DNA of 19,954 nt from a virus. Lineage: Duplodnaviria > Heunggongvirae > Uroviricota > Caudoviricetes. Location: the IMG/VR virus record IMGVR_UViG_2534681899_000007. One strand, written 5' to 3'. Made by a program: the position numbers and the translations under genes. The notes under the pieces are model-generated. The model was given only the letters and a program-made list of their open reading frames with translations. It did no database searches and had not been told where the DNA came from. The first letter of the stretch is position 1. The number at the start of each line of letters is the position of its first letter. Shown piece by piece: positions 1 through 19,954 of this stretch.

Positions 1-1284
1 TTACTTCTTCGCCTCTGCAACCACTTTACTACCCACGCCGCGGTTATTGTATTCCCACATGCGGTTGTAGTTAGTGTCATTCAGATTGCGCTGTATTTCG
101 TCGTTATCATCTACGCTGCCGGTATTACCCGCAAACGGACGATTAGAGATCACCGCATCGGCCCACGGTTTAGCCGTGTTAAAACCTTCGTTGATGGCGC
201 TATCACGGATCACCACCTGACCGTTGGTATTGGCATCAACATCCAGCGAGCGGCCCAGTTGCGCCACACCATCACCGAAAGCATTGAAACGGCTGTTTAC
301 GGCGAGGAAACCGTAGTAAATGTTGGACAGCGTAGCCGGTGCAAACACATACGCTTCTTGCTGAGTACGTGAGTTCACCACGCGGAATTCGGTGTTATCG
401 AACACCACTGCGCCGCGACCAGAAACGATATCCACATCCCCTTCAATGTAGCTGTTGGTCACCAGCGTACGCGGCTGACGGTTGGTTTCCAGACGGTTCT
501 GCACACCGCTGTTGGTGACAAAGAAGGTGTTCTGACGACCGAGAATGTTAACGTTGTTAATCTGTACCTGGTCACCATCAGTACGCAGTGCCACCGCCGG
601 ATGGTTACCTGCATCTACGCTATCGCCCAGCGTGTTTTCGATGGTCAGATTTTGCAGTTGCAGGCCATTGTTTTGTGACCAGAAGACCGCAGAGCAGAGA
701 ACACCGATACTGTCGCTGCGTTTGCTCTGGCAGCTATCGTACATATACCACGCTGGTTTACCTGGCATATATTTGCCGCGCGGGTTGACGTCGTGACGCC
801 AGTCGGCAGGGCTCATGCCACCATCAAGGGAAAGCCCAATCTTCACATCAATCGGTTTTTCACCTGTACCGTACAGAGTAATTCCACCCGGAGCGGCAGG
901 GACATATACCGTTCCCTGATACTCACCAGGCATCACGGCAATATACTGGCGCTTGTTGGTACGCTTGATAATTGCCGCATCTACCGCCGCCTGAATCGTG
1001 GTATGCGTTACACCTTGAGTGCCCGCCGGGCCGACAACAAAGTCAGGTTGCGCAGGCAGGGTAATCGGGGAAGGATTCCACGCTGCAGCACCTGGTGTCA
1101 GGGATGCAAAATAGTGTTGAGCATCGAAATTCTGCGCTTCTTTTGCCGACAGAATCGGGCGAGAAGAGGTACCAGGCGCGGTTTGATCAGAAGGACGTTG
1201 ATCGGGCGGGGTTGAGCTACAGGCGGTCAGCGTCACGCCAAAAGCCAATGCCAGCGCCAGACGGGAAACTGAAAATGTGTTCAC
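1..1284 (-). CDS. ybhC: YbhC-type outer-membrane lipoprotein (pectinesterase-like acyl-CoA thioesterase family); chromosomal gene flanking attB(lambda)
   Basis: Complete 427-aa ORF with an N-terminal signal peptide and lipobox (LTAC). The sequence is recognised as E. coli YbhC, which lies next to the lambda attachment site in the gal-bio interval. Confidence 0.88.
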   Translation of the reverse strand: MNTFSVSRLALALAFGVTLTACSSTPPDQRPSDQTAPGTSSRPILSAKEAQNFDAQHYFASLTPGAAAWNPSPITLPAQPDFVVGPAGTQGVTHTTIQAAVDAAIIKRTNKRQYIAVMPGEYQGTVYVPAAPGGITLYGTGEKPIDVKIGLSLDGGMSPADWRHDVNPRGKYMPGKPAWYMYDSCQSKRSDSIGVLCSAVFWSQNNGLQLQNLTIENTLGDSVDAGNHPAVALRTDGDQVQINNVNILGRQNTFFVTNSGVQNRLETNRQPRTLVTNSYIEGDVDIVSGRGAVVFDNTEFRVVNSRTQQEAYVFAPATLSNIYYGFLAVNSRFNAFGDGVAQLGRSLDVDANTNGQVVIRDSAINEGFNTAKPWADAVISNRPFAGNTGSVDDNDEIQRNLNDTNYNRMWEYNNRGVGSKVVAEAKK

Positions 1285-1330: not shown

Positions 1331-1422
1331 GCTTTTTTATACTAAGTTGGCATTATAAAAAAGCATTGCTTATCAATTTGTTGCAACGAACAGGTCACTA
1401 TCAGTCAAAATAAAATCATTAT
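1331..1422. other. attL (B-O-P'): 15-bp core GCTTTTTTATACTAA (1331-1345) plus P' arm with IHF site and Int arm-type sites
   Basis: Exact lambda core sequence. Bacterial-type B half (CCTGC) lies to the left and phage P' sequence (GTTGGCATTATAAAAAAGCATTGCTTATCAATTTGTTGC) to the right. IHF-like TATCAATTTGTTG is at about 1370-1382; arm-type repeats CAGGTCACTAT, CAGTCAAAAT and AAAATCATTAT are at 1391-1422. Confidence 0.9.
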
Positions 1423-2489
1423 TTGATTTCAATTTTGTCCCACTCCCTGCCTCTGTCATCACGATACTGTGATGCCATGGTGTCCGACTTATGCCCGAGA
1501 AGATGTTGAGCAAATTTATCGCTTATCTGCTTCTCATAGAGTCTTGCAGACAAACTGCGCAACTCGTGAAAGGTTGGCGGATCCCCTTCGAAGGAGAGAC
1601 CTGATGCTTTTCGTGCGCGCATAAAATACCTTGATACTGTGCCGGATGAAAGCGGTTCACGACGAGTAGATGCAATTATGGTTTCTCCGCCAAGAATCTT
1701 TTTGCATTTATCAAGTGTTTCCTTCATTGATATCCCGAGAGCATCAACATGCAATGTTGTTGGGATGGCAATTTTTACTCCTGTTTTGCTTTGCTCGACA
1801 TAAAGATATCCATCTACGATATCAGACCACTTCATTTCGCATAAATCACCAACTCGTTGCCCGGTAACAACAGCCAGTTCCATTGCAAGTCTGAGCCAAC
1901 ATGGTGATGATTCTGCTGCTTGATAAATTTTCAGGTATTCGTCAGCTGTAAGTCTTGATCTCCTTACCTCTGATTTTGCTGCGCGAGTGGCAGCGACCGG
2001 GTTTGTTGTTATATGGCCTTCAGCTATTGCCTCTCGGAATGCATCGCTCAGTGTTGATCTGATTAACTTGGCTGACGCCGCTTTGCCCTCGTCTATGTAT
2101 CCATTGAGCATTGCCGCAATTTCTTTTGTGGTGATGTTTTCAAGTGGAGCATCAGGCAGACCCCTCCTTATTGCTTTAATTTTGCTCATGTAATTTATGA
2201 GTGTCTTCTGCTTGATTCCTCTGCTGGCGAGGATTTTTTCGTAGCGATCAAGCCATGAATGTAACGTAACAGAATTATCACTGTTGATTCTTGCTGTCAG
2301 AGGCTTGTGTTTGTGTCCTGAGAATAACTCAATGTTGGCCTGTATAGCTTCAGTTATTGCTATCCTCCTGTCTCGGCCTAATCCAAACTCTTTACCAGTC
2401 CTTGGGTCCCTGTAGCAGTAATATCCATTGTTTCTTATATAAAGGTTAGGGGGTAAATCCCGGCGCTCATGACTTCGCCTTCTTCCCAT
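1419..2489 (-). CDS. int: Integrase, tyrosine recombinase (lambda Int, essentially identical)
   Basis: 356-aa ORF beginning MGRRRSHERRDLPPNLYIRNNGYYCYRDP and ending RDDRGREWDKIEIK, matching lambda Int as recalled. Its 3' end overlaps the P' arm as in lambda. Confidence 0.97.
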   Translation of the reverse strand: MGRRRSHERRDLPPNLYIRNNGYYCYRDPRTGKEFGLGRDRRIAITEAIQANIELFSGHKHKPLTARINSDNSVTLHSWLDRYEKILASRGIKQKTLINYMSKIKAIRRGLPDAPLENITTKEIAAMLNGYIDEGKAASAKLIRSTLSDAFREAIAEGHITTNPVAATRAAKSEVRRSRLTADEYLKIYQAAESSPCWLRLAMELAVVTGQRVGDLCEMKWSDIVDGYLYVEQSKTGVKIAIPTTLHVDALGISMKETLDKCKKILGGETIIASTRREPLSSGTVSRYFMRARKASGLSFEGDPPTFHELRSLSARLYEKQISDKFAQHLLGHKSDTMASQYRDDRGREWDKIEIK

Positions 2490-2735: not shown

Positions 2736-2892
2736 GGTGTTCTTTCAGTTCTTCAATTCGAATATTGGTTACGTCTGCATGTGCTATCTGCGCCCACAGC
2801 ATCCAGTGGGCATAGCAGTCGTTGATGTCCTCTGCTTCGATAACTCTGTTGAATGGTTCTCCATTCCATTCACCTGTGACTCGGAAGTGCAT
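2725..2892 (-). CDS. Small hypothetical protein (55 aa), not in the supplied ORF track
   Basis: Manually translated: MHFRVTGEWNGEPFNRVIEAEDINDCYAHWMLWAQIAHADVTNIRIEELKEHQTA. A GGAG Shine-Dalgarno lies 7 nt upstream of the ATG and the intrinsic terminator follows immediately. It sits between the accessory operon and xis. Confidence 0.45.
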   Translation of the reverse strand: MHFRVTGEWNGEPFNRVIEAEDINDCYAHWMLWAQIAHADVTNIRIEELKEHQTA

Positions 2893-3050
2893 TTATCATC
2901 TCCATAAAACAAAACCCGCCGTAGCGAGTTCAGATAAAAGAAATCCCCGCGAGTGCGAGGATTGTTATTGTCTTTTCTTCGTGCATTTGTCGCACTTTCG
3001 GCACCATCCAGATAGGCACATCCGTCCGCAATTAACACATATAGGCCACA

Positions 3051-3332
3051 TCATTTCTCCTCTTTTGGTTTATGAATCTGAATGGTCATGCCGCTTTGAG
3101 TGGTGACTACAATGACAGAACCAGGCTGAAGACTGTTAAGATTGAATGCTTCGTAAAACGAATCCAATGCCAGTGCTTTTTTATTCTTTCGGTTCCACCA
3201 ACGCCATCCCCTGCTACAGGCCATGTTGACAATCCACTGCCCACTCCTGTAAGCCATATAAAACCAGATGAGCAAAACCTGAAGGAATGCTATCCAGTCA
3301 ATAATCGTATATTTCGCGAAGGAGTACATCAC
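3051..3332 (-). CDS. Hypothetical protein (93 aa) with an N-terminal hydrophobic segment, probably membrane-anchored
   Basis: ORF in a tightly packed leftward operon; ATGA start/stop overlap with the upstream gene. Hydrophobic stretch IIDWIAFLQVLLIWFYMAY. Confidence 0.55.
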   Translation of the reverse strand: MMYSFAKYTIIDWIAFLQVLLIWFYMAYRSGQWIVNMACSRGWRWWNRKNKKALALDSFYEAFNLNSLQPGSVIVVTTQSGMTIQIHKPKEEK

Positions 3333-3718
3333 TTCACCTCCTGCTGTGGTGCTGCTGGCATTTCACGCCAGTGCGTAACTGAGTGCGGATCCGGATATTC
3401 GGTGCCATCATCCCAGCGATTGCCATTCCACATTGCAGACCACATCTCACCGTCTTCATACATGACCATTACCGGAATTAACTTATCCGGCATTCGCTCA
3501 CTACAGCTTATCCAACCATCCGGAGTTACCGGAGAGTTGCCAGATGGCTCGTTCAACTTGTAAGTTTGGCTTACAGGTTCGGCTTCCAGCGATGCCAGTG
3601 CGATACGAAACACATTGGCAAGCAGGCTGTCTGAAGATTGGTTATCGTGCGCCGGGTCGCTCAGGAAACCAGTGATGAATGATTTAATCTCCGCGCGTTC
3701 TTTGGTAATGGTGGTCAT
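3329..3718 (-). CDS. DUF551-like phage protein (129 aa)
   Basis: C-terminal region DGWISCSERMPDK...VTHWREMPAAP resembles the DUF551 signature common in lambdoid prophage early regions. Operon context supports it. Confidence 0.6.
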   Translation of the reverse strand: MTTITKERAEIKSFITGFLSDPAHDNQSSDSLLANVFRIALASLEAEPVSQTYKLNEPSGNSPVTPDGWISCSERMPDKLIPVMVMYEDGEMWSAMWNGNRWDDGTEYPDPHSVTHWREMPAAPQQEVK

Positions 3719-3719
3719 A

Positions 3720-4019
3720 TCACATCACCCTGAAGCCGTTGCATTTACGTAAGAAATCGCAGATATAGCCCTTCATTTTTTCATGCCAATCTCGATCATT
3801 CCCATTGCACCAACCATCAGGTGGAGTCCAGTTTTCTATCAGAGCAGCCATTTTCTTTGCTTTCGCCGGAGTAGCTGTTGCGGTATCGCAGTAATGACGA
3901 GTGTCAACAAACTTATCCATGCCATCGATATCAAGTACGCAAAACCATGTGTGATTCGGCATTTCAACAGATGGTATTTGTTGCCCACGTCGACGTTTAT
4001 CAATAAGACATACAGTCAT
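3720..4019 (-). CDS. Hypothetical protein (99 aa), Cys/His/Trp-rich
   Basis: ORF tightly packed in the leftward operon; start overlaps the stop of the upstream ORF (ATGA). No family recognised. Confidence 0.5.
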   Translation of the reverse strand: MTVCLIDKRRRGQQIPSVEMPNHTWFCVLDIDGMDKFVDTRHYCDTATATPAKAKKMAALIENWTPPDGWCNGNDRDWHEKMKGYICDFLRKCNGFRVM

Positions 4020-4561
4020 GGTTCCACCTTCTCTATTTGCTTAAGACCGTCTCTCACTGCATTAAGTACGCGTTCCAGATATTGGTATTTCGGGTTTGGT
4101 ATTGTTGGCCAGTTGGCATACCACGGATCATCACCAAAGAGATTCAGTAGTTTGTTACCGACGCCGAAACAGCAGCAGTTTTCTTTTACGTCATCGGCGT
4201 TTTCCGCCTCGTCCCACATTTCGCGAGCCAGTACGGCGTCGATTTCTCTCTCTCTTCGTAACTTTATGATTTCTGACTTCACGAAAAGCAGATTTGCATC
4301 GTTGTCATCGTCGACCGTGCTTAGCAGTTGAGGGTCGAAATTGTCGATTAGATAATCGTTGCTAACTCGCTTAATGAACGTCTGCACATCATCACCGCCC
4401 ATAGCAAACCAAGCCGCTGTCCACGCTTTTCCGTAGCAGGTGATGGTGATTCTTCCCTTTCCATGTTCGTAGTTTTCAATCATCACTCGAACCGGATCTA
4501 GTCGCTCTGCACCGGTTATAACGAATGACAACACATCAATCTTTTCAACCGTTACACTCAC
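4016..4561 (-). CDS. Hypothetical protein (181 aa) with acidic stretches (DDDNDAN, DEAENADD) and a CCC motif
   Basis: Long ORF in the operon frame pattern. No family recognised. The true start may be slightly downstream, as the first 17 nt overlap the upstream gene. Confidence 0.55.
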   Translation of the reverse strand: MSVTVEKIDVLSFVITGAERLDPVRVMIENYEHGKGRITITCYGKAWTAAWFAMGGDDVQTFIKRVSNDYLIDNFDPQLLSTVDDDNDANLLFVKSEIIKLRREREIDAVLAREMWDEAENADDVKENCCCFGVGNKLLNLFGDDPWYANWPTIPNPKYQYLERVLNAVRDGLKQIEKVEP

Positions 4562-4865
4562 TGATTGCCTCCTTTGCTGGGCTTTCTAGCTTCTGAGTGG
4601 TTGTATCAAACTCAAACAACTTAACCACGTCATCAAACAGGACATAATCGCCATCAGAATCTTCAGTCATGTCAGCGCCACAATCCTGACCGCACGAGTC
4701 GCAACCTCCCATATCAAGCTCGTATCGCTTCAGGTTTGCGATATTTGATAAATTCAGCGCCAGTACAGCCAGGTCATAAACCTCTTCGGCGGTATACCCT
4801 GCGCCATGCCCATACATTTCAATGCGGGATATGATTTCTTCTACCCGTTGTTTTGTGATCGTCAT
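4545..4865 (-). CDS. Small highly acidic hypothetical protein (106 aa) with a CxxCxxxC cluster
   Basis: About 22 Asp/Glu versus about 8 Lys/Arg. Cys cluster CDSCGQDC plus a C-terminal Cys. ATGA overlap with the upstream gene. Confidence 0.55.
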   Translation of the reverse strand: MTITKQRVEEIISRIEMYGHGAGYTAEEVYDLAVLALNLSNIANLKRYELDMGGCDSCGQDCGADMTEDSDGDYVLFDDVVKLFEFDTTTQKLESPAKEAISECNG

Positions 4866-5425
4866 TTTTGCTCACCTCCCTGTTCTTCCAGAAAAATACG
4901 CATAGCCTCAAGCATCTCTTCGGTGTCATACGGAGACAGCTTGTCACGCAGGATGTGTTCAATGCTGTTAATGAACTTTCGGATTGCTTTGCGTTCAATT
5001 TCAGTCAGGAAAGCATCGGTGGCTGGGGTGTCTGATTGCATAGACTTTGCGCGATAGTCATTCCACCCTCTTGCATACATGGGATTAACTTGCACTCCAT
5101 CTTTTACGCAATATGCCTGCCCTCCACGGTTGATAACCTTGATTTCGTCCATAGCGCCAGACTTCAGCCCAGCATTCTCCGCCGCCAGCGCCGAAAACTT
5201 CTCGTGAGCCAACTTAACAGCCGCATCAGCCTGCTTAATTGACTCAATCGCTTTCTGGTGGTCTTCGGACAGAGCCGAAATCTTGGCCTCCGCTTCAGCA
5301 AATTTACGCACCAGATATTCAGCGTTTGTTTCGTTAACCTTTAAATCTCGTGGGATGCATTTACCTTTCAGAAATCCATCCATCTCAATTAGTGACATTT
5401 GTTTCATTTCTTCCCACTCCGCCAC
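4862..5425 (-). CDS. Hypothetical protein (187 aa); N-terminal half looks helical/coiled-coil, possibly Ea22-like
   Basis: ORF in operon. Ala/Glu/Lys-rich heptad-like segment ([46 protein letters not shown]). The Ea22-like assignment is a guess. Confidence 0.5.
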
Positions 5426-5601
5426 ATTGCATTCAGATATTTGTTTTGATTTACTGATGGAAAAGAATTTCTCTTAAGCAATTCCTCTCTCGATGGCATT
5501 GGCTTTACGCGTTGGCGAATAATCATTTCTGCCGGAAGAATGCCGGGATTGTATGCAAGTCCTCTCATGGTAAATTCCTCAGTCATTACTGATAGCGCCA
5601 T
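5404..5601 (-). CDS. Small hypothetical protein (65 aa, possibly starting at an internal Met)
   Basis: ORF fills the gap between two operon genes but overlaps both neighbours by about 22 nt. Coding status uncertain. Confidence 0.35.
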
Positions 5602-5875
5602 AGCGTGAGCGGTAATTACGCAGGCGCGGGTCGATATATTCAGGGAAGTGGGTATATGTGGCTTTGCGGAATGGTCGGATTGATGTTTCGTTTATTCGGT
5701 CTTTTTCCTGTTTTTCTGCGAGTTGTATATCGCGTCGGCACTTCCGTTCTTCTTTTGTTTCTGGTGGCAGAGCAAGAAACGCGTCGAGATTATTCTTGAT
5801 ATTTTCCAGCACCTCCGATACGGAATTGCCGGAACAGCGGCGCGGGTCATCCGCACCATACAGAGGCGCTGGCAT
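5579..5875 (-). CDS. Hypothetical protein (98 aa), basic
   Basis: ORF directly downstream of the exonuclease remnant in the same leftward orientation. No family recognised. Confidence 0.5.
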
Positions 5876-5891
5876 GGTTTTCTCCTGTTGA

Positions 5892-6164
5892 TTATTTAGC
5901 TAACTTTTTCCAGATCGCTGAAACGTATTTGGCTTGGTGAATGGCATCATCAAGCGCGTTGTGGCGAGTTCCTTTGAATGACATATCTCGCTTAGGGTCG
6001 AATCCTATTACCTTCCCAAGTTCGACGATTGTTCTTACGTCGCGGTCATTCCACCACTGCCACGGAACTGGCTGCCCTGTCAGCGAATAACTGTTTCGGA
6101 GAATAACGCAGTCAAATGATGCTCCATTCCCCCAAGCCGAAAGCAGACCGCAACGACCTCGCAA
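5892..6164 (-). pseudogene. DnaQ-like (DEDDh) 3'-5' exonuclease, C-terminal fragment (5'-truncated)
   Basis: Contains Exo II-like ([10 protein letters not shown]) and Exo III-like (HNALDDAIHQAKY) motifs, but the Exo I (DxE) region is absent. The upstream part of the ORF overlaps the helicase fragment on the opposite strand. Confidence 0.6.
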
Positions 6165-6553
6165 TTGCTCACATCTCCGGAAGCCTGAAGGCGATGGCGA
6201 AAGACCTGAAAACGCCGGTTATCTCCCTGAGTCAGCTTTCACGCGATGTTGAGAAGCGACCAAACAAACGCCCGACAAACGCAGATTTGCGTGATTCAGG
6301 AAGCATTGAACAGGACGCAGACTCAATCATCATGCTCTATCGGGAAGCTGTATATGACGAGAACAGTAGCGCCGCGCCATTTGCTGAAATCATTGTGACG
6401 AAAAACCGTTTTGGCTCACTTGGTACGGTTTACCAGCGGTTCTGCAACGGACACTTTGTTGCATGTGACCAGGATGAAGCCAGACAGATTTGCACAGCAT
6501 CAAATGCACCCGCTGCACGTGGAAGACGATATGCACAAGGGGCTGACGTATGA
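6116..6553 (+). pseudogene. DnaB-family replicative helicase, C-terminal fragment (5'-truncated)
   Basis: [45 protein letters not shown]...[16 protein letters not shown] matches the C-terminal RecA-like region of DnaB-type helicases (E. coli DnaB: [46 protein letters not shown]). The N-terminal roughly 300 aa are absent; an in-frame stop lies at 6104-6106. Confidence 0.75.
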
Positions 6554-6581
6554 CCGTCTACATCACTGAGATAATAACAGG

Positions 6582-6609
6582 GGCTATTTACACAGTAGCC
6601 CTTTTTTAT
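6582..6609 (+). terminator. Hairpin plus T-run (putative intrinsic terminator) at the helicase/terminase junction
   Basis: GGGCTA...TAGCCC stem followed by TTTTTTATT. Confidence 0.4.
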
Positions 6610-6637
6610 TGGATTAAGAACGAGGGGGATTCCTACG

Positions 6638-7270
6638 ATGGGTAGTGGTCGAATCTTCCAGATACCGGAAGAGACGATTAAGTGTCAGCCGTTCGAGTGT
6701 CCTGATCACTTCTACGTAATTGGTGGGATGGATTTTGGATGGGATCACCCACAGGCGCAGGTTCAGCTTTGGTGGGATAAGGACGCAGACACAATCTACG
6801 TTTCACGCGTGTGGAAGGCGAAAGAAAAAACAGCTGTTCAGGCATGGGGAGCTGTTAAATCATGGGCGCATAAAGTGCCAACCGCATGGCCTCATGACGG
6901 AAACCAGCATGAGAAGGGCGGCGGTGAGCAGCTCAAAGGGCAGTACGCGGACGCTGGTTTTATGATGTTGCAGGAGCATGCGACATGGCCTGATGGCGGT
7001 AACGCTGTGGAGCCTGGAATCACTGAATTGCGCGACATGATGCTTGATGGTCGCTTCAAAGTATTCAACACCTGTGAGCCATTCTTTGAGGAGTTCCGCC
7101 TCTATCACCGTGATGAAAACGGGAAGATCGTCAAGCTTAACGACGACGTGCTATCCGCCGTTCGCTATGCATACATGATGCGCCGCTTCGCCAAAATGAT
7201 GCGCGACATCAAAAAACCAAAAGAGAAAAAGATACCAGCCCCAATCAGGCCCATCGCACGGAGAACTTAA
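6638..7270 (+). pseudogene. Terminase large subunit, C-terminal nuclease-domain fragment (ATPase domain missing)
   Basis: 210-aa ORF with RNase-H-like nuclease-domain features (VIGGMDFGWDHP ... DDVLSAVRYAYMM). Its stop overlaps the portal start (TAAATG), as for P22 genes 2 and 1. An in-frame stop at 6596-6598 leaves no room for the ATPase domain. Confidence 0.7.
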
Positions 7271-8863
7271 ATGGCCGACGAAAACAGACTCAATTCCATT
7301 CTGTGTAAGTTTGACGCGGACTGGATGGCGAGCGATGAAGCCAGAACCGAGGCGACAAATGACCTGTATTTTAGCCGAGTGTCGCAATGGGATGACTGGC
7401 TATCAAACTACACTACCCTGCAATATCGCGGACAATTCGATGTTGTTCGCCCGGTGGTCAGGAAGCTGGTCGCAGAGATGCGCCGTAACCCTATCGACGT
7501 TCTCTTCAGACCAAAAGACGGAGCTAATCCTGATGCTGCCGATGTGTTGATGGGAATGTATCGTACCGATATGCGCCATAACACGGCAAAAATTGCCGTT
7601 AACGTTGGCGTTCGTGAGCAGATAGAGTCCGGCGTTGGTGCATGGCGTCTGGTCACACAGTACGAAGACAACGATCCAACAAGCAACAACCAGGTAATCA
7701 GACGCCTGCCAATCCATGAAGCCTGCTCACACGTCATATGGGACGCCAACAGCAAGCAGATGGATAAGAGCGACGCTAAGCACTGCACGGTGATTAACGC
7801 CTTGTCGCGCAATGGCTGGAAAGAGTTCGCAGAGGATTACGGTATTGATCCGGACACCTTGCCATCTTTCCAGAATCCGAACGATACATGGCTGTTTCCG
7901 TGGGTATCGAATGATGTCGTCTACGTCGCTGAGTATTACGAGGTCGAAGAGAAGAAAGAGAAAGTCTTCATCTACCGCGACCCGCTGACAGGTGAGCCGG
8001 TAAGCTATTACCAGCAGGATATCAAAGACGTCATCGACGACCTGGCTAATCGTGGATTCATTAAGGTAGCAGAGCGCAAGGTGAAGCGTCGGCGTGTGTA
8101 TAAGTCGATCATCACCTGTACGCAGATACTGAAAGACCGCGAGAAGATAGCCGGAGAGCATATTCCAATCGTTCCAGTGTATGGTGAATGGTCATTCGCT
8201 GGTGACAAGGAGTGCTACGAAGGAGTGGTAAGGCTGACGAAAGACGGTCAACGCCTTCGTAACATGATCATGTCGTTCAACGCCGATATTGTTGCTCGTT
8301 CACCGAAGAAGAAACCGACCTTCTTCCCTGAGCAAATCGAAGGCTACGAATACATGTACGGTGGAAATGATGACTATCCGTACTATCTGCAGAACAGGAC
8401 CGATGAAAACGGTAACGACCTGCCGATTGGTCCAATCTCCTACATGGAAAACCCTGAAGTGCCGCAAGCCAACGCTTACATGCTTGAGGCAGCCACCAAC
8501 GCAGTGAAAGAGGTGGCTAGTCTTGGAGTGGATGCGCAGGCGGCAAATGGTCAGGTCGCTTTCGATACCGTCAATCAACTGAACATGCGGGCAGACCTTG
8601 AGACATACGTGTTTCAGGATAACCTGGCTACCGCAATGCGACGTGATGGCGAGATTTATGCCTCAATGGTCAACGATATTTATGACGTTCCTCGCCATGT
8701 AACGCTGACTCTTGAAGACGGAAGCGAGAAAGACGTTCAACTCTACGCGCAAGTTGTAGATTATCCAAACCGTATGCCTGTTGGTAGCGGTAACCAGTTG
8801 GCGAAGTGGAACGGTTGGAATTACTTCCACCGGAAGGAACCTTGCGATAACGGGAGCGAATAA
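7271..8863 (+). CDS. Portal protein (P22 gp1-like), C-terminally shortened or chimeric: 530 aa versus about 725 aa
   Basis: N-terminal roughly 490 aa closely resemble P22 portal as recalled ([18 protein letters not shown]..., [13 protein letters not shown]..., [22 protein letters not shown]...). The last roughly 35 aa do not, and the ORF stops immediately before gp10. Confidence 0.8.
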
Positions 8864-11440: not shown

Positions 11441-12133
11441 ATGTTATATGCATTTAAGCTGGGCAGAAAACTGCGCGGCGAGGAACCTTATTGCCCTGAA
11501 AAAGGCGGGAAAGGTGGCAGCTCTGATAAAAGCGCAAAGTATGCCGCAGAAGCTCAGAAGTATGCCGCAGACCTGCAAAATCAGCAGTTCAACACCATCA
11601 TGAACAACCTGAAGCCGTTTACTCCTCTGGCTGATAAGTATGTCGGCAGCCTCGAGAACTTATCGTCTCTGGAAGGGCAAGGTCAGGCACTTAACCAGTA
11701 TTACAACTCTCAGCAGTACAAAGATCTTGCTGGTCAGGCTCGTTATCAGAGTCTGGCGGCAGCGGAAGCAACAGGTGGATTAGGTTCCACCGCAACCAGT
11801 AATCAGTTAGCAACAATCGCACCAACGCTAGGTCAGCAATGGCTATCTGGACAAATGAACAATTACAACAACCTGGCAAATATCGGTCTTGGCGCTCTTC
11901 AGGGGCAGGCAAACGCCGGGCAAACATATGCCAACAACATGAGTCAGATTTCACAGCAAAGCGCGGCGCTGGCGGCGGCAAACGCCAACCGACCGTCAGC
12001 ATTGCAGCAGGGTGTTAGTGGTGCTGCATCCGGTGCGCTTTTGGGTGGTGGCATAGCCAGTGCTCTCGAGCTATCAACTCCGTGGGGTGCTGGTATCGGT
12101 GCTGGTCTTGGTCTGCTTGGCTCGTTGTTTTAA
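11441..12133 (+). CDS. P22 gp7-like ejection (DNA transfer) protein
   Basis: 230-aa ORF MLYAFKLGRKLRGEEPYCPEKGGKGG...; Gln/Ala/Gly-rich with a Gly-rich hydrophobic C-terminus, as in P22 gp7. Confidence 0.85.
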   Translation: MLYAFKLGRKLRGEEPYCPEKGGKGGSSDKSAKYAAEAQKYAADLQNQQFNTIMNNLKPFTPLADKYVGSLENLSSLEGQGQALNQYYNSQQYKDLAGQARYQSLAAAEATGGLGSTATSNQLATIAPTLGQQWLSGQMNNYNNLANIGLGALQGQANAGQTYANNMSQISQQSAALAAANANRPSALQQGVSGAASGALLGGGIASALELSTPWGAGIGAGLGLLGSLF

Positions 12134-12143
12134 GGGGTAATCA

Positions 12144-13559
12144 ATGGCTACGTGGCAACAGGGTATTAATTCTGGTGGTTTTCTGGCTGGCATTGGTGCG
12201 CAAAACGAGAATGCGCCAAAGGCAAGCGACATTAACGCAACGCTTGGTCTGATCCGCGAAAACAATGAACTGGCTCGCTCAGGTGCAAATAACGTTGGTC
12301 TGACCGCGTTACGTGGTCTGGCTGGAGTTGCTGATATTTATAAGCAGGAACAGCAACAGAAAGCGATTAGTGCGTTCAATAAGGTTCACGCTGATGCATG
12401 GGCTTCTGGTGATCCATCGGGACTATTTAAGTTTGCCCAGGAAAATCCAGCGTTTGTTGCACAGGCACAACAGGCGTTTTCCGGTCTTAATGAGCAGCAA
12501 CGCAACGATATGGGCGATTTAGCCATGAGGGCTAACGTCGCTCTTTCTCAGGGACCGGAAGCCTACAGTAAATTCATTACTGACAACAAGGACAGGTTAA
12601 ATCGCGTTGGTGCTAATGCTGACTGGATGATTCAGACAGGTATCCAGAATCCAGAGCAGCTATCACACATGCTGACTACTATGTCTCTCGGTGCGCTTGG
12701 GCCAGAAAAGGCGTTTGCTGTTCAGGATAAGATGGCTGGTCGTGAAATTGACCGAGGCAGGCTGGCAGAGACAATCCGCAGCAATCAGGCTGGTGAAGCA
12801 CTTCAGGCGAGAGGGCAAAACCTTTCCTATCAGTCAGCAATGACTGGGCACAATATCGCAGCACAACGCTTGGCTCTGGATCAGCAAGAGTTCGGGTTTA
12901 AGATGCAGCAAGCGCAGGAAAAGGCTCAGCAGTTGATTAGCGAAGCACCTAAGCTGTCAGTAAACATGGAAAAAGGCATCGAGACGGCTGTAAACAATGC
13001 CACAGCATCATCAAACTCAGCCAATTCTATGAGTGCGCTTGCTCAACAGTTCAGAGCAGAAAAACCAACGACAGGTTTGTTCGGTAACGCACAGAACATG
13101 TTCGCAAAACTTACCGGAAGCGATACGACATTGCGTGATTTGCGCATTCGCCAAAATGCCCTTGTTAACAGTCAGGTTCTTAAATTCCTACCTCCCGGCC
13201 CCGCAACGGATAAAGACGTTGAGATCGTTCGTCAGGGTGCACCAACTGACATGGATAACCCTGAGACGGTCGCAAGATGGCTTGATGCTATGGCAAACCT
13301 TGAGCGACGAAACGCGCAGTTTAATGAGTTTAAAGCCGAGTGGATGAGCGCGAATGGCAACCCTGGACAATCGCGTAATGGCGGTCAGATATTGGGGTTG
13401 GATGTTAAAAAAGGTGAATCATTGGGGAGTGCCGTTAAGCGGTATATGTCAATGAATACTGACGCAGCGCCAGCACAAGATTCGACACCTTCAGGAGAAC
13501 CACGGAATCAGGTTGGATCATATACATCAAAATCAGGCATTCAATTTACGGTGGAATGA
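12144..13559 (+). CDS. P22 gp20-like ejection protein (471 aa)
   Basis: Same length and position as P22 gp20. Confidence 0.85.
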
Positions 13560-15397
13560 TGAAAGTAACTGCAAACGGTAAGACATTTACCTTTCCTGAT
13601 GGTACGAGCACCGAAGATATTGGCACCGCCATTGATGAGTATTTTGCTGGTCAGGCTGTTCAGCAACAAACAGTTAATCAGGCCAATAATGCACCAACAC
13701 GGGAAGAACCATCATTGATCCAACAAGCTGGCGATTGGCTCACTGGTGGTCAAAGTGCAGGGCAAATTGCAGAACAGGCTGGTCGTGGTCTGGTAAACAT
13801 ACCATTTGACGTATTGCAGGGCGGCGCAAGTCTGATTAATGCAATCAGTCAGGGGCTTGGTGGACCCAAGGTTTTGGATGATGTTTATCGTCCAGTAGAC
13901 AGACCGACAGACCCCTACGCGCAAGCCGGTGAAACAATTGGTGGGTATTTAGTTCCAGGAGTTGGAACGGCAGGAAGCATGGCTATTGGATCACTGGCAG
14001 AGGCCGCAAATCAGAAAGGCGATTTCGCACAAAATGCAGCTAAAAATGCCGGAGTTAACCTTGCCACTCAGGGTGTTCTTTCCGCAGCAGCAAAGGGAAT
14101 AGGGCGTGGAATAACGGCTATAAAAGGTGATATTGCGCCAGAAGTGGCGAAGAAAATTACCACATCAGAATCGATGGGCGTGACACCAATGACATCTGAT
14201 GTTATCCCGCCGAAAAATGCTTTCACTCGCGGCCTAACTCAGGATGCCGAGGGGGCTTTGCTCGGGACAGGCTCAAAGCGAGCGGAGCAATATGCAACGC
14301 GTAGTAAGCTGGTAAGTAATTATTTTGACCGTTTTGGTGAGTACAACCCTGATGATGTGGTGAAATCTCTTACCACCACGTTAAGGGGGCGGAAGGATGC
14401 CGCTGGCGCTGTTATCAATGACGTCACCAATAAAATGGGTAATGCCGCAGTTGATACCACAAATACCATGAATGCTCTGAATACAGCGATCGCAAGACAG
14501 GAACGGCTTGGGACGTCTGCCAATCAAAGCCTGCTTACATCCTTGCGTAACCTACGTGAAGAATTAGCAAACCCTGCAACTGATTTGGATGTTACGTTTG
14601 ATCTCTTGCGTCAGCACAGAACAGCATTTAGATCTAATGTTCAGGGAGATGCTATGGTCTTCCCCAACCAGGCAAAAGCAGCTACCAATATGGTAGAGAA
14701 TGCAATGTCAAAAGACCTTCGTAACGCAGTTGCTAAAAACCTCGGTGCATCAGACGCAGCAAAATACCTTAAAGCAAATTCCGATTATGCAAACGTTTAT
14801 AATAAGGTGCTTAATAAAAACATTGCTAACAAGCTCAACAAGGCAAGCAGTGAAGCCAGTCCTGAACTTATAAATACCGTTGTATTAAGCAGAAAACCAT
14901 CTGACGTGAAACGAATATGGAGCGCCCTGGATGATAAAGGGAAAGATGCTATGCGTGCAGCTTACGTCAGCAAAATAGCGGAAAAGGCCGGTGACTCTCC
15001 AGCCAAGTTCATCACTGAAGTTAATAAGCTGAAATCTCAGTCAGGCGGTGAAATTTACAACACTATTTTTTCTGGAAAGCACATGAAAGAGCTTGATGCT
15101 CTTCATGAAGTTCTACAGCAAACAGCAAGGTCAGACACCGCAAATGTAGTAACTCAGACGGGGCAATCACAAGCCAACAGGATAAGGACGATTGGCGCAA
15201 CTGCGACTCTTGGTGTATCAATGGGGCTTGAGGCTGGCTTTGGTGCAATGATGCGTTTGTATGAGTCCAAAGCAGCAAGGAATGCTCTCTTACGTCTGGC
15301 AAACACTAAAGCTGGAACGCCAGCCTATGAAAGAGCGTTGAGTAACGCTGCAAATGCCATCAGGCCGCTGCTTGCTACTGAGGCAACACAGCAGTAA
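13556..15397 (+). CDS. P22 gp16-like ejection protein (613 aa)
   Basis: Length and position match P22 gp16; ATGA overlap with gp20. Confidence 0.85.
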
Positions 15398-15421
15398 CGT
15401 ATGGGGAATTGGATTCAATCG

Positions 15422-15811
15422 TTAACATTTTCTTTTTACTTTTCCAACAAAAGCTTTGGTTGAATCCATATTCCCATAACCAGAAATGGTTTTCGACATT
15501 AAAACTGTTCCATTAGGATGTATTACCCATGAGTCGATAACTCGTTGAGTTTCGCCATTCGCGCCGATTCCAATGATGGAGTTTTTAGACAATGCTTTGT
15601 AAGCCATGCCGCCCGCATCCGTCCCAGAATATGTGATACTGGCATCTTCACCGTTTGTCTTAATGATGAATGTTCCACTAAAACCATCTTCTTCCGGTTG
15701 AAAATTATTTCGTTCTGAATAGCTTATTCCGTGCATATCTCCAACGACCCAGCACTCTGCTGAGACAGAAAACGAGAAGACAAGGAAAGCCATTGCTATA
15801 ATCAATTTCAT
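15422..15811 (-). CDS. Small Sec-exported protein (129 aa), beta-rich, Cys near both ends of the mature chain; moron in the mnt operon
   Basis: Signal peptide MKLIIAMAFLVFSFSVSA with cleavage after SVSA. AAGGG Shine-Dalgarno 5 nt upstream of the ATG. AT-rich relative to flanking phage genes. Lies 15 nt downstream of the other moron ORF. Confidence 0.65.
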   Translation of the reverse strand: MKLIIAMAFLVFSFSVSAECWVVGDMHGISYSERNNFQPEEDGFSGTFIIKTNGEDASITYSGTDAGGMAYKALSKNSIIGIGANGETQRVIDSWVIHPNGTVLMSKTISGYGNMDSTKAFVGKVKRKC

Positions 15812-15826
15812 TTTAAGCCCTTATTG

Positions 15827-16162
15827 TTATTGATTCTTTTTGCACGGAAATGTTTTTCCTACTGCTAGGGCGGTTAGTATAACTGCACTCTCATTTCTTG
15901 ATTCTGGGTTTTTGTTTAGATATTTCTCAACGATATCGGTGTATTGATACATGTCAACGCCATCAGGAGGACATAGAGAACCAATTAGTATCAATGAGTC
16001 AGTTACTCCGCGCAAATATCCAGTAATGTAAAGCGATGAAAAATCATCACCCTTTTTACCTTGTTGAATGTTGTAAAGAAGGTCATTACCCGTTTGAAGC
16101 TCGCGCAGCTCAGCACTGGAAGAAGAGACAACTGCTAACAAGAACAGTGATAGAAATCTCAT
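15827..16162 (-). CDS. Small Sec-exported protein (111 aa), probably helical with 2 Cys; possible Rap1a/Tai4-like periplasmic immunity-type fold (tentative)
   Basis: Signal peptide MRFLSLFLLAVVSSSSA. Its start codon overlaps the mnt stop (ATGA) and an AAGGA Shine-Dalgarno lies inside the mnt 3' end. Mature part contains ...GYLRGVTDSL...SLCPPDG...ILTALAVGKTFPC. Confidence 0.65.
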   Translation of the reverse strand: MRFLSLFLLAVVSSSSAELRELQTGNDLLYNIQQGKKGDDFSSLYITGYLRGVTDSLILIGSLCPPDGVDMYQYTDIVEKYLNKNPESRNESAVILTALAVGKTFPCKKNQ

Positions 16163-16413
16163 TTCAAATCCTTTTCATAAATCTTTTTAAGTGTCTCAAA
16201 CACTATAGCCTTGAACTGCTCAGCCTGCTGATCAGCCAAGCGTTCAGCTTCGTCGCGATATCCTGTAATCGGTGATGGTTTTGATAGTGCATCCTGAACG
16301 ATTTGTAATAACTCAGAGTTCATTGACCTTCCGTTAGCCTCGGCTCTTAATTTCAATTTTTCTCTTACTTCCAAAGGCATACGGAAGTTAAAGTGCGGAT
16401 CATCTCTAGCCAT
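16159..16413 (-). CDS. mnt: Mnt repressor (P22 immI maintenance repressor, ribbon-helix-helix)
   Basis: MARDDPHFNFRMPLEVREKLKLRAEANGRSMNSELLQIVQDALSKPSP... is nearly identical to P22 Mnt as recalled. Transcribed divergently from arc/ant. Confidence 0.93.
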   Translation of the reverse strand: MARDDPHFNFRMPLEVREKLKLRAEANGRSMNSELLQIVQDALSKPSPITGYRDEAERLADQQAEQFKAIVFETLKKIYEKDLK

Positions 16414-16435
16414 GCCATCACTCCAAGTTAGTGTA

Positions 16436-16487
16436 TTGACATGATAGAAGCACTCTACTATATTCTCAATAGGTCCACCGTGGACCT
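16436..16487. promoter_or_regulatory. immI control region: Pant (-35 TTGACA 16436-16441, -10 TATATT 16459-16464), Arc operator (16441-16461) and Mnt operator (16471-16487), with divergent Pmnt overlapping
   Basis: ATGATAGAAGCACTCTACTAT matches the P22 arc operator. AGGTCCACCGTGGACCT is a perfect 17-bp palindrome matching the P22 mnt operator. Confidence 0.85.
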
Positions 16488-16503
16488 ATATTGTGAGGTG
16501 AAC

Positions 16504-16665
16504 ATGAAAGGAATGAGCAAAATGCCACAGTTCAATTTGCGGTGGCCTAAAGAAGTATTGGATTTGGTACGCAAGGTGGCGGAAGAAAATGGTCGGTCTG
16601 TTAATTCTGAGATTTATCAGCGAGTAATGGAAAGCTTTAAGAAGGAAGGGCGCATTGGTGCGTAA
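16504..16665 (+). CDS. arc: Arc repressor (53 aa, ribbon-helix-helix)
   Basis: MKGMSKMPQFNLRWPKEVLDLVRKVAEENGRSVNSEIYQRVMESFKKEGRIGA matches P22 Arc. The longer track ORF from 16441 starts inside the operator and is rejected. Confidence 0.93.
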   Translation: MKGMSKMPQFNLRWPKEVLDLVRKVAEENGRSVNSEIYQRVMESFKKEGRIGA

Positions 16666-16667
16666 AG

Positions 16668-16733
16668 TTGAAGCCCCAACTGCTGTAACAGTCAGGGCTT
16701 CGGCATCAACAAATCGGATTAGGAAATATTGAC
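16668..16733 (-). ncRNA. sar: Candidate sar-like antisense RNA covering the ant ribosome-binding site (tentative)
   Basis: P22 encodes a small antisense RNA (sar) across the arc-ant intercistronic region. Here a minus-strand TATACT -10 overlaps the ant start and a GAAGCCC...GGGCTTC hairpin lies at 16666-16702. Confidence 0.35.
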
Positions 16734-17612
16734 ATGAAAAGTATAGCAAAGGCACAAAACGATTTCACCATCTTCAAATTCGGCGACAGTGAAATCCGCG
16801 TCATCAACAAGTGCGGTGAGCCGTGGTTTGTAGCTAAAGATGTTTGTGATGCTTTAGATTTGACTAACTCACGCAAGGCGCTTACTGCACTTGATGACGA
16901 TGAAAAGGGAGTAACTTTAAGTTACACCCTTGGTGGTGAGCAGAATCTAAGCATTGTGAGCGAATCAGGTATGTATACATTGGTTCTGCGCTGCCGCGAT
17001 GCAGTCAATAAAGGTTCAGTCCCGCACAAATTCCGCAAGTGGGTAACAGCAGAAGTTCTGCCTTCAATTCGCAAACATGGCGAGTATGTAAAAGGAAAGA
17101 AAACCACTGTTGAGGAAAGAACACCGCTACGCGATGCAGTAAACATGCTGGTAGGAAAGAAAGGACTTCGCTATGACGATGCATACAATATGGTTCATCA
17201 GCGTTTTGGTATTGACAGCATTGATGAACTTTCAATTGAACAAATCCCGCTGGCCGTAGAGTACATCCACAGGGTAGTGCTTGAAGGTGAGTTCATTGGC
17301 AAACAAGAGAAGAAAACCAACTAGCTTTCTGCAAAAGAAGCAAACAGCCTTGTATGGTTATGGGATTATGCCAACCGCTCACAGGCATTATTCCGCGAAC
17401 TGTATCCGGCGCTAAAACAAATTCAATCGAACTATTCCGGCAGATGCTACGACTACGGTCATGAATTCTCGTATGTTATCGGAATGGCGAGAGACGTTTT
17501 AATAAACCACACACGAGATGTTGATATCAATGAGCCAGACGGACCAACGAATCTTTCCGCATGGATGAGACTTAAGAATAAAGAATTACCTCCTTCAGTA
17601 CATAACTACTGA
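16734..17612 (+). pseudogene. ant: Antirepressor Ant (Bro-N domain) interrupted by an in-frame amber codon at 17322-17324
   Basis: 196-aa N-terminal ORF with a Bro-N-like motif ([16 protein letters not shown]). After the TAG the same frame stays open for 95 further codons to TGA at 17610-17612, giving about 292 codons in total; P22 Ant is about 300 aa. Confidence 0.75.
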
Positions 17613-17630
17613 CAGATAACCAACGCAACG

Positions 17631-17656
17631 ACCCAGCTTCGGCTGGGTTTTTTTAT
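17631..17656 (+). terminator. Intrinsic terminator downstream of the full-length ant frame
   Basis: ACCCAGC-TTCG-GCTGGGT hairpin followed by TTTTTTT. Confidence 0.7.
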
Positions 17657-17713
17657 GCCCAAAATTCACCGTAGCTACGCTGCGGCGATTCCTTGTATCT
17701 GGAGCAAATTAAA

Positions 17714-19954
17714 ATGACAGATTCAATAAATGCCAATGTTGTGGTAAGCATGCCTTCGCAACTCTTCACTATGGCGCGTTCTTTTAAAGCGGTTGCCAAT
17801 GGCAAAATTTATATCGGTAAAATTGACACTGACCCGGTAAATCCTGAAAACCAGATTCAGGTTTATTTAGAGAACGAAGACGGCTCTCACGTTCCTGTAT
17901 CGCAACCAATCATCATTAACGCTGCTGGTTACCCGGTATATAACGGACAGATTGCCAAATTCGTTACTGTACATGGCCATTCTATGGCTGTTTATGATGC
18001 GTACGGTGCTCAGCAGTTCTATTTTCCTAATGTGTTGAAGTATGACCCTGACCAACTCAGGCAAGATCTTGCATCTCAAGGCGGTGTTAATCTGGTAAAC
18101 GGAGCTATCTCACAGGAAGATCTTGTTTTGCAGTCGATCACAAAAATCCCAAGTTATGATAATTCTAACGTAGTCCAGGCGTGGCGCGATAGTGTTGCTA
18201 CCTACGGGTATGTTTACTTTTCTAATCATTCAAAAAATCAGATGGTGTACACCGTACCGTCTACAGCTGCTAACGCTTCTTCCCTTGCGAACAGTAAAGT
18301 AATCATTGATAAAAATGTCACCCTGAGATTCGACAGTGATCTGTACTCACTGTTTAAATCGTTGCAGTACGAGGGGGAGGGTACGTTTGAATTTACGCAC
18401 CTGAACTTTAAAGCAACCGGTGGAGAAGTGGATTACCTGGCTAAGCAGGCCATCCTCAACCGAAACCCTATTCGCATGAAGCGAGTGGAATGGTCAGATT
18501 GTAAAGTTTATTCCATAAATGGTGACACGTTCTTCTATGAAGGTGAAGTCACCATATCCTCAGATAGCGCAGCTGTCGTCGCCTTAACTACTAACTATGC
18601 AACAGGCCTGTTCGCACCAATAGATATTGGTGAGCATATTTCTGCACATATTCGCATGGAATCTCAGGCCGCCTCAGAAGTTGGGATTGTTCTGCGATGC
18701 TCTGGTGGTTGGATGATGTTCTATGGGGCACCAGGTGCTACACAGTGGTCTTATAGACAGAAACCAATTGGTGGTCCAGTAGCAGAAGGAACTCCATTCC
18801 CGCTGCCAGGAGGTTTACTGTCGTACGCCCCGGGCAAAGCAACCGTTGGCGTATCACTGCAAGGTAAAAACTGGGCGCAGATAACGATGAATGGCGTTGG
18901 GATACGTTTGCCCTTTGATACTGGTGATGTAGGGGATGTATACGAAGTTGGGTTTGTTGCACTGACCCCGGCATCTGGAGGTTCTGCGCGAGTAACTGGA
19001 TTATGCAGCTACACCTCTGATAATGGCGTGCACGGTAAGCCTCCACTTAATATCCTTATCCACGGTGATAGTACAGCTGAGGATTTCATTTCCGCGTTCA
19101 GCTCGTACATTCCGCAATTAATGGATGGAGCGAACGGCCACCGTTCATATAGCCTTGTAAACAAGGCGGTTGCCGGACAGACAATGAGGCAACAGTTAGA
19201 TCTCCTGAAGGCTCAGGGGCCGGGTGATGCTTACATCGTTATTATGGTTGCCGGAACTAACGAAGGGCAGGCAAACCAAAACGGCGATTATATGGCGGCA
19301 CTGATAGATGAGTTTGTCTTATATTGCAATGGCCTTGGTCGTATCCCTGTTTGGGTTGAGCCGTGGATGTGGTATAGCCAGTCATTTATTGGAGGGGCTG
19401 GTCAGCCATCTTCTAACTACGACGGTGTCGCAGAGTTGCGAGAAGCTGGTAAACGCCAGATGATGAAATATGGCAATAACGTCATTTGTGTAACAACAAC
19501 TCACCAGCTCCCGGCCCCATATCCAGAGTATTTCAACACGCAATACGACCCACTTCTGCGTGATGACATTCACCAAAGCCAGTTAGGGTATCGTCTGTAT
19601 GCGGAAATTATCTGCTCTGCCATTATCGACTGGTGGTCGCGTGTTGATTACACGCCAAGAGCAGCTGTTCAATGGTGGGCTGGAACAAACGTAACAGTAC
19701 AGGCACCGTCAAGTTTAACTGCCAATTCAATTAATATTAAACTGGCAGCCACTTCATTTGCGAATGGCAATACTGTTCTAACGCTTCCGAGGTGGTGCAG
19801 ACCAAAAGTAACCAAAAATGTCCCTGTACCGTTCACTGCTGATGGCGTTTCATTTGGTATGGCAATGGCCACCATTAATGCTTCAACAGGACAAATATCG
19901 ATTGAAGGGTCCACAACTACATCTCCAACGTTCTACATAGATGCGACATGGTAG
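17714..19954 (+). CDS. Tailspike: P22-type head-binding N-terminal domain fused to a different receptor-binding region containing an SGNH/GDSL hydrolase-like domain
   Basis: N-terminus [35 protein letters not shown]...NVLKYDPDQ resembles the P22 gp9 head-binding domain. The downstream sequence is unrelated to the P22 endorhamnosidase and carries GDS (19064-19072), GTNE (19253-19264) and DDIH (19562-19573). Start chosen at the ATG after a GGAG Shine-Dalgarno, not at 17693. The stop is the last codon of the window. Confidence 0.88.

Follow-up and report, generated by a model that had tools for sequence, protein, structure and literature searches.

Cryptic or grounded lambdoid prophages such as DLP12, Rac, Qin and e14 have lost regulatory, replication, lysis and head genes by internal deletion and have kept integrase and some tail or accessory genes, a general pattern laid out in PMC6379469 and PMC7744054. 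In the latter study, incomplete prophages are described as preferentially losing the genes for replication, packaging and lysis, with integrase and tail-fibre genes being kept. The P22-like prophages and phages that serve here as the intact reference (the E9 prophage, IME10, CUS-3 and the KD602 prophage) share their gene order with the locus described below and are 92-99% identical to it at the DNA level in the shared modules, and E. coli E9 carries an intact relative of ~37 kb that is likewise integrated at ybhC and has the same integrase. Large internal deletions that join truncated or unrelated genes are themselves found among P22-like relatives. In KD602, which is defective, a helicase gene that has lost its C-terminus runs straight into a full-length terL (L001 8044-10745), and the likewise defective CEA601S has the stretch immediately behind cII fused to mid-portal (L019 18756-20665).

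To see how a further locus compares with these systems, we analysed a stretch of 19,954 nt from IMG/VR record IMGVR_UViG_2534681899_000007, which is called the window here and from the first letter of which all window coordinates count. The window is 100% identical to scaffold KB733082.1 of GCA_000352485.1 over 18,863 bases and holds almost the whole of an element of ~19.0 kb. The element is a P22-like (Lederbergvirus-type) defective prophage at att-lambda of E. coli, with the order ybhC/int...tailspike/ybhB. Its left boundary is marked by the 15-mer GCTTTTTTATACTAA, which we take to be the lambda att core and which was matched in 0 of 200 shuffles. At the right end of the window lies the tailspike gene, and a second att core is present in locus L009, whose sequence agrees fully with window positions 11844-19954; this core occupies positions 20295-20309 of the locus, so that about 402 nt separate it from the window end and the tailspike stop, and ybhB and bioA come immediately after it. 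In between, the genes run in the order int, xis, ea genes, DUF2737, abc2, exo′, hel′, terL′, portal-gp4 fusion, gp10, tail needle, gp14, gp7, gp20, gp16, two small leftward genes, mnt, arc, sar, ant′ and tailspike, where a prime marks a truncated gene. The P22-type virion module is present in P22 order (terL, portal, gp4, gp10, gp26, gp14, gp7, gp20, gp16, immI, tailspike), as assigned from Pfam matches (P22_portal, Phage_stabilise, DUF2824, P22_gp7, Inj_translocase, Phage_P22_gp16, Arc/Mnt and Head_binding), from PHROG for the tail needle and from the sar RNA, with the scaffold and capsid genes deleted. A virion of P22 type goes together in this element with an integrase of lambda type and an exact lambda att core; the place of integration, between ybhC and ybhB, is the classical att-lambda site. 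The coordinates of all features are collected in Table 1.

Table 1. Features of the window and the evidence on which each was assigned.
Feature	Window coordinates	Strand	Basis or remark
Host ybhC	1-1284	-	Left end of window
attL, lambda att common core GCTTTTTTATACTAA	1331..1345	+	Exact match, between host ybhC and prophage integrase gene
Lambda-type tyrosine integrase, 356 aa, intact	1419..2489	-	Pfam Arm-DNA-bind_1, Phage_int_M, Phage_integrase on identical gene in L008/L014
Leftward accessory (ea/abc) genes, ending with DUF2737 and anti-RecBCD Abc2 (5579-5875)	2784..5875	-	Pfam on L014 called genes; PHROG
3′ remnant of phage 3′-5′ exonuclease gene, residues 102-182/182	5892..6135	-	PF16473, protein alignment, DNA homology end at 6135
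Junction 1, 2-nt microhomology AA, no filler	6134..6135	.	Base-by-base alignment to mEpX2 and KD602 exonuclease genes, HK97 and KD602 helicase genes
3′ remnant of DnaB-type replicative helicase gene, residues 320-458/458	6134..6553	+	DnaB_C, alignment to HK97 and E9 helicases, DNA homology start at 6134
Small gp56-like ORF (phrog_5907), 3′ end cut by Junction 2	6550..6630	+	HK97 homology to 6630; PHROG
Junction 2, AT microhomology	6629..6630	.	Alignment to type A relative (L015+L010), HK97, IME10
3′ remnant of large terminase gene, nuclease domain only	6629..7270	+	Pfam Terminase_6C only
In-frame fusion, portal residues 1-497 and gp4 residues 134-166, 530 aa	7271..8863	+	Alignment to L002, L006, L001; frame arithmetic
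Junction 3, TTA microhomology, inside portal-gp4 fusion	8761-8763		
Surviving immI region	16159..17324	.	Pfam Arc, Repressor_Mnt, Bro-N; Rfam; ant alignment
mnt, intact	16159-16413	-	Pfam
arc, intact	16504-16665	+	Pfam
sar antisense RNA, intact	16666-16732	-	Rfam RF00262, 65.6 bits
ant, cut short by nonsense codon	16734-17324	+	Alignment, Bro-N

Compared with its P22-like relatives, the element lacks three blocks (~7.07, 9.63 and 3.55 kb), which comprise immC, replication, nin, Q, lysis, terS, half of terL, the portal C-terminus, scaffold and capsid; added to the 19.0 kb that are left, these blocks give ~39.3 kb, the normal size of a P22-like genome. The att cores therefore flank an element that, judged from its genes alone, is a defective (cryptic) prophage, without genes for induction, replication, lysis or head assembly. 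Its pattern of loss and retention matches exactly the general finding for incomplete prophages (PMC7744054; see also PMC6379469). The element differs from DLP12, Rac, Qin and e14 in its P22-like virion type (portal, gp10, gp26, gp14, gp7/20/16, tailspike and immI) and in its position at att-lambda. It is also very young: the carriers compared are identical in sequence apart from deletions, so that individual decay steps are still visible.

The leftmost of the three junctions joins an exonuclease remnant to a helicase remnant. We consider, with a probability of about 0.9, that window positions 5892-6553 are the scar of an illegitimate deletion at the level of microhomology (2 nt) within a P22-like prophage at att-lambda, that both remnants are pseudogene fragments and that the deletion was an early step in the decay of the element. 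On the left, the minus-strand ORF (5892..6164, 90 aa) gives a significant match to PF16473, the Rv2179c-like 3′-5′ exonuclease family (E = 7.8e-31, 107.6 bits against a cut-off of 27), that covers only positions 100-177 of 177; the full-length 182-aa homologue of phage mEpX2 covers positions 1-177. In the protein alignment, WGNGASFD (Exo II) and HNALDD (Exo III) are retained and the Exo I segment MVDLET is absent, and the ORF does not contain the complete three-motif domain (Exo I D-x-E, Exo II D, Exo III H-x4-D). Judged from its sequence, the exonuclease remnant is a gene fragment and would not be a functional member of PF16473. The gene from which it derives belongs, more precisely, to the phage Rv2179c-like branch of RNase T/DEDDh-type enzymes, and a PDB search with the full-length exonuclease as the query returned one distant phage-type exodeoxyribonuclease only (8kel, E = 9e-14).

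On the right, the plus-strand ORF (6116..6553, 145 aa) covers only positions 146-247 of 255 of DnaB_C (E = 4.7e-37); the full-length helicase of HK97 (458 aa) covers DnaB_C positions 2-247 and also has the DnaB N-terminal domain. The helicase remnant is without residues 1-319, including GMGKT (Walker A) and the Walker B segment, and retains SQLSR and an 11-residue motif. The combination that marks the DnaB family, an N-terminal domain with a complete RecA-like C-terminal domain containing Walker A and B, is absent from it. Both remnants appear to be pseudogene fragments, neither of which would have a promoter or translation start of its own. The earlier note, made from the sequence without database searches, had described the minus-strand ORF as retaining only Exo II and Exo III and the plus-strand ORF as retaining only the C-terminal domain of a DnaB-type helicase, and both descriptions are borne out by the domain coverages and protein alignments. 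Neither ORF is a full-length member of a short protein family, since each is the C-terminal part of its Pfam domain only.

Alignment to full-length genes, by which the note had proposed to locate the breakpoint, placed it at the position given in Table 1. The exonuclease-side DNA is 91-97% identical to the mEpX2, KD602 and CEA601S genes, with homology stopping at 6135, and the helicase-side DNA is 97-99% identical to HK97, KD602 and hundreds of E. coli prophages (E9 also matches), with homology beginning at 6134. At this point the two remnants lie head to head, and AA (or the imperfect AAnCC) is all that the parental sequences have in common. The overlap at 6107-6164 that the note had assigned to the two remnants is an error, the true shared stretch being 2 nt; near the junction, each ORF starts with codons read by accident from the antisense strand of its neighbour, namely the first 6 codons of the plus-strand ORF (MMLHSP) and the first 9-10 of the minus-strand ORF. 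The search for microhomology that the note had suggested thus yielded 2 nt, although a single 2-nt overlap is not significant alone (P about 0.16). With few shared bases and no long repeat, IS element or filler, Junction 1 has the features of a microhomology-associated illegitimate deletion. A deletion mediated by an IS element or by long repeats was rejected, because neither is present at Junction 1 and the parents share 2 nt only.

Carriers of the junction were located by looking up the exact junction-spanning proteins in a public collection. The 145-aa junction-spanning ORF was found in 54 blocks, which include NCBI assemblies, Logan assemblies and an ENA metagenome. Among the roughly 50-60 carrier assemblies are GCA_000352485.1, GCA_049466035.1, GCA_965255455.1, GCA_900603635.1 and GCA_049463375.1. 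That Junction 1 should be an assembly or chimera artefact is hardly conceivable, as NCBI, Logan and ENA assemblies that are independent of one another all have the identical join, on contigs of up to 3.48 Mb, and the identity of the window to KB733082.1 also argues against it. Exact-match scans for the Junction 1 sequence in species-representative genomes, IMG/VR and JGI metagenomes gave no match.

The persistence of the 145-aa ORF raises the question of whether the truncated ORFs might be functional short proteins, for example a helicase C-terminal fragment that poisons the replicative helicase of superinfecting phages, with the junction being kept by selection. The ATG with which the ORF starts was created by the junction, the subunit-interface motifs (SQLSR and the 11-residue motif) are kept, and the ORF is preserved in all four of the decay states described below. 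However, the carriers are identical in sequence, which makes its retention uninformative on selection. Moreover, no promoter-like site is present near the ORF on either strand, the only GGAG is found 14 nt ahead of the ATG, a distance that we judged too great for efficient initiation, and Walker A and B are missing from the fragment. We regard a selected function as very improbable and retain the view that both ORFs are debris of a deletion.

For the content and size of the deleted interval, mosaic relatives with 91-98% identity were used. Intact P22-like and lambdoid relatives have a leftward exonuclease gene and a rightward helicase gene; in KD602, E9, CEA601S and L022/L024 these two enclose ssb, an Erf/Rad52 recombinase, kil, cIII, small ORFs, an N-type antiterminator, a LexA-family (HTH_3/Peptidase_S24) repressor, cro, cII, a small ORF and an O/gp18-type replication protein. 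The interval between the breakpoints measures 7,072 bp in KD602, and excising this DNA reproduces the head-to-head arrangement of the element precisely, without additional bases. The deletion, of ~7 kb, ran from the middle of the leftward exonuclease gene to two-thirds into the rightward DnaB-type helicase gene. By synteny it would have taken with it the helicase ATPase core and the replication initiator, the immC repressor together with cro and cII, the promoters pL and pR, the N-type antiterminator, kil/cIII, ssb and the Erf/Rad52 recombinase. The positions of pL and pR within the lost block are assigned by synteny.

The most economical reading is that Junction 1 arose in one single deletion event, and we think this likely. 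A less probable origin, though one that merits consideration, is that at least two deletions in succession led to the junction, or that it arose when two different lambdoid genomes, co-resident or incoming, recombined illegitimately. The best matches do differ by arm, the exonuclease side being mEpX2-/CEA601S-like and the helicase side HK97-like, but module mosaicism is normal in lambdoid and P22-like phages, such that different arm matches need no two parents, and both gene types occur in the required orientation within the one KD602 prophage. Repeated deletion is typical of the carriers, which have undergone five further deletions without SNPs, and the scars of earlier nested deletions can be erased by a later, larger one; against this, Junction 1 is clean, with its 2-nt microhomology and no filler, and is the same in all 54 blocks. 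An intact ancestor or intermediate was not found in 5,426 complete E. coli genomes, species-representative genomes, IMG/VR or JGI metagenomes, which leaves room for a multi-step origin. None of the 5,426 complete genomes has Junction 1 or the whole left arm, and none covers at least 80% of window positions 5400-7400, of the whole window or of the left arm at 2970-5890. A look-up of an exact 181-aa left-arm protein returned only the same defective family and two mosaic prophages, which lie at other sites and differ in their recombination modules.

The deletion has predicted consequences for the element. The note had stated that the pL operon and the helicase gene are normally separated by N, the immunity region and the replication initiator, which agrees with the gene content of KD602, E9, CEA601S and L022/L024, and its proposal that a deletion removed the whole immunity and replication-initiation region is supported by synteny and by the clean join. 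Nor does an immunity region of this type lie elsewhere in the element beyond the window, as no HTH_3/Peptidase_S24 repressor is found among the called genes between the att cores. This gene content was read from the called genes of the sequence-identical loci L008/L014, among which there is also no replication initiator, Q, holin/endolysin, terS, scaffold, capsid or immC repressor. Because immC, pL and pR, N, the replication initiator and the helicase ATPase core would have been lost, the element is predicted to be non-inducible and non-replicating, with no immC immunity and no SOS induction. The term ‘repressor-less’, which the note had applied to the element, holds for immC and does not hold for immI, where mnt, arc and the sar RNA persist at 16159-16732.

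The ea/abc genes are normally the distal part of the pL operon. In the element these leftward genes would, by synteny, be without their normal promoter and are probably silent. A consensus scan, which recognises near-consensus sites only, detected no sigma-70-like site in 5300-7400 on either strand and no minus-strand promoter candidate between 5875 and 13517. The scan also revealed no replacement promoter for the leftward genes near Junction 1, which is weak negative evidence; the result fits a leftward accessory operon without a promoter and does not prove it.

The strongest promoter-like pair in the window is a divergent Pant/Pmnt-like pair at 16436-16469, in the immI region. Within this region, ant has an in-frame stop at the position of E9 Glu197, and the frame downstream is open to about 17630 and still matches the Ant C-terminus. 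The ant gene is a point-mutation pseudogene that lies beside intact mnt and arc genes and whose antisense sar RNA is likewise intact. Two small leftward genes between gp16 and mnt (15422-16162, minus strand) are kept in all decay states; one encodes 111 aa with a Rap1a domain (PF18602, a type VI secretion immunity protein family; E = 9.7e-15), and the other encodes 129 aa (phrog_2651). Both may be moron cargo.

The two other junctions lie in the rightward half of the element. Junction 2 is the trace of a deletion of exactly 9,629 bp from the nin region to the middle of terL, its size being measured against a type A relative that is otherwise identical in sequence, and it joins the small gp56-like ORF downstream of the helicase gene to terL. 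A terminator scan placed a terminator-like hairpin at 6579-6603, within this small ORF. The terL remnant is 98-99.6% identical in DNA to full-length terL genes, with the homology starting at 6626-6629. Junction 3 corresponds to the loss of ~3,546 bp, as measured in E9 and L002, comprising the portal C-terminus, scaffold, capsid and the gp4 N-terminus. The resulting fusion ORF matches Pfam P22_portal at positions 2-466 of 594, followed by a P22_Tail-4 tail, and was found in 58 blocks of the public collection. The chimera stops at gp4’s own stop codon, directly before the start of gp10.

The carriers fall into four decay states, all of which have Junctions 1 and 3. Type A (L015+L010, L018) has these two junctions only and retains nin, Q, the lysis cassette, rha, terS and terL. 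Type B (L013+L007, L017) is also without the lysis cassette (3,118 bp, microhomology CAA) and gp26-gp7 (1,226 bp, TA), and type C (L016, L009) is also without the stretch from the Q end through the terL N-terminus (4,355 bp, TAT) and gp10-gp7 (2,791 bp, TA). The window type (L008/L014) also has Junction 2. When the window, type A, type B and L009 were compared with the junctions trimmed, there were zero point differences over all shared DNA, and large deletions at this locus have accumulated much faster than substitutions. Because Junction 2 occurs in the window type only, it is later than Junction 1; Junctions 1 and 3 are ancestral to the carriers, and both precede Junction 2. In the proposed order of events, Junction 1 would be an old step common to all carriers, stepwise decay would also have given Junction 3, and Junction 2 would have followed in the lineage of the window.

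Two smaller differences between carriers were observed. In the type C locus L016 (GCA_900603635.1), the integrase gene at 5305-6374 is split into ORFs of 154 aa and 159 aa, consistent with a single-base gap relative to type A and a further inactivation step. Just to the left of the window, the ybhJ-ybhC intergenic region of types A and B (L013 3676-3870) contains a tandem pair of ~100-nt units that are 92% identical to each other and the region is ~93 nt shorter in the window-type strain (L014).

All seven junctions in the family have 2-3 nt of microhomology. The chance of at least 2 nt is 0.156 (analytic) or 0.160 (empirical) for each junction, and that of at least 2 nt at all seven is about 2e-6, which supports microhomology-level illegitimate joining as the general mechanism in the carriers. 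The later deletions overlap: three independent ones remove the lysis cassette, with a common core at type A positions 15672-18785, and two independent ones remove gp26-gp14-gp7. From a rough estimate based on interval lengths, which is no rigorous test, the probability of such overlap by chance is ~0.02, which is suggestive of selection or hotspots and does not prove either. We entertain only tentatively the idea, which we think rather unlikely, that the loss of immC and replication made the element a liability and that selection purged the remaining late genes quickly and repeatedly.

The KD602 and CEA601S scars resemble that of the element in joining truncated or unrelated genes, but their breakpoints differ from those of the element, indicating independent events, and both prophages have kept the immC repressor that the element has lost. 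A literature search on ybhC, prophage and P22 found no paper on this element. Junction 1 is ordinary prophage decay, a new instance of the well-known deletion scar of cryptic prophages. Annotations should mark the 90-aa and 145-aa ORFs, the 210-aa ORF of the terminase and the 530-aa ORF of the portal as pseudogene fragments and should not label them exonuclease, helicase, terminase or portal. Taken alone, the scar has little significance, being textbook prophage inactivation in which the immunity/replication block is lost and integrase and tailspike are kept. Its modest value lies in the exact breakpoints, the partly resolved order of events and the sister strains with alternative later deletions and no point mutations. 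If the convergence of the later deletions reflects selection, the carriers would constitute a natural time series for the rate and selection of prophage disarmament within one clone.
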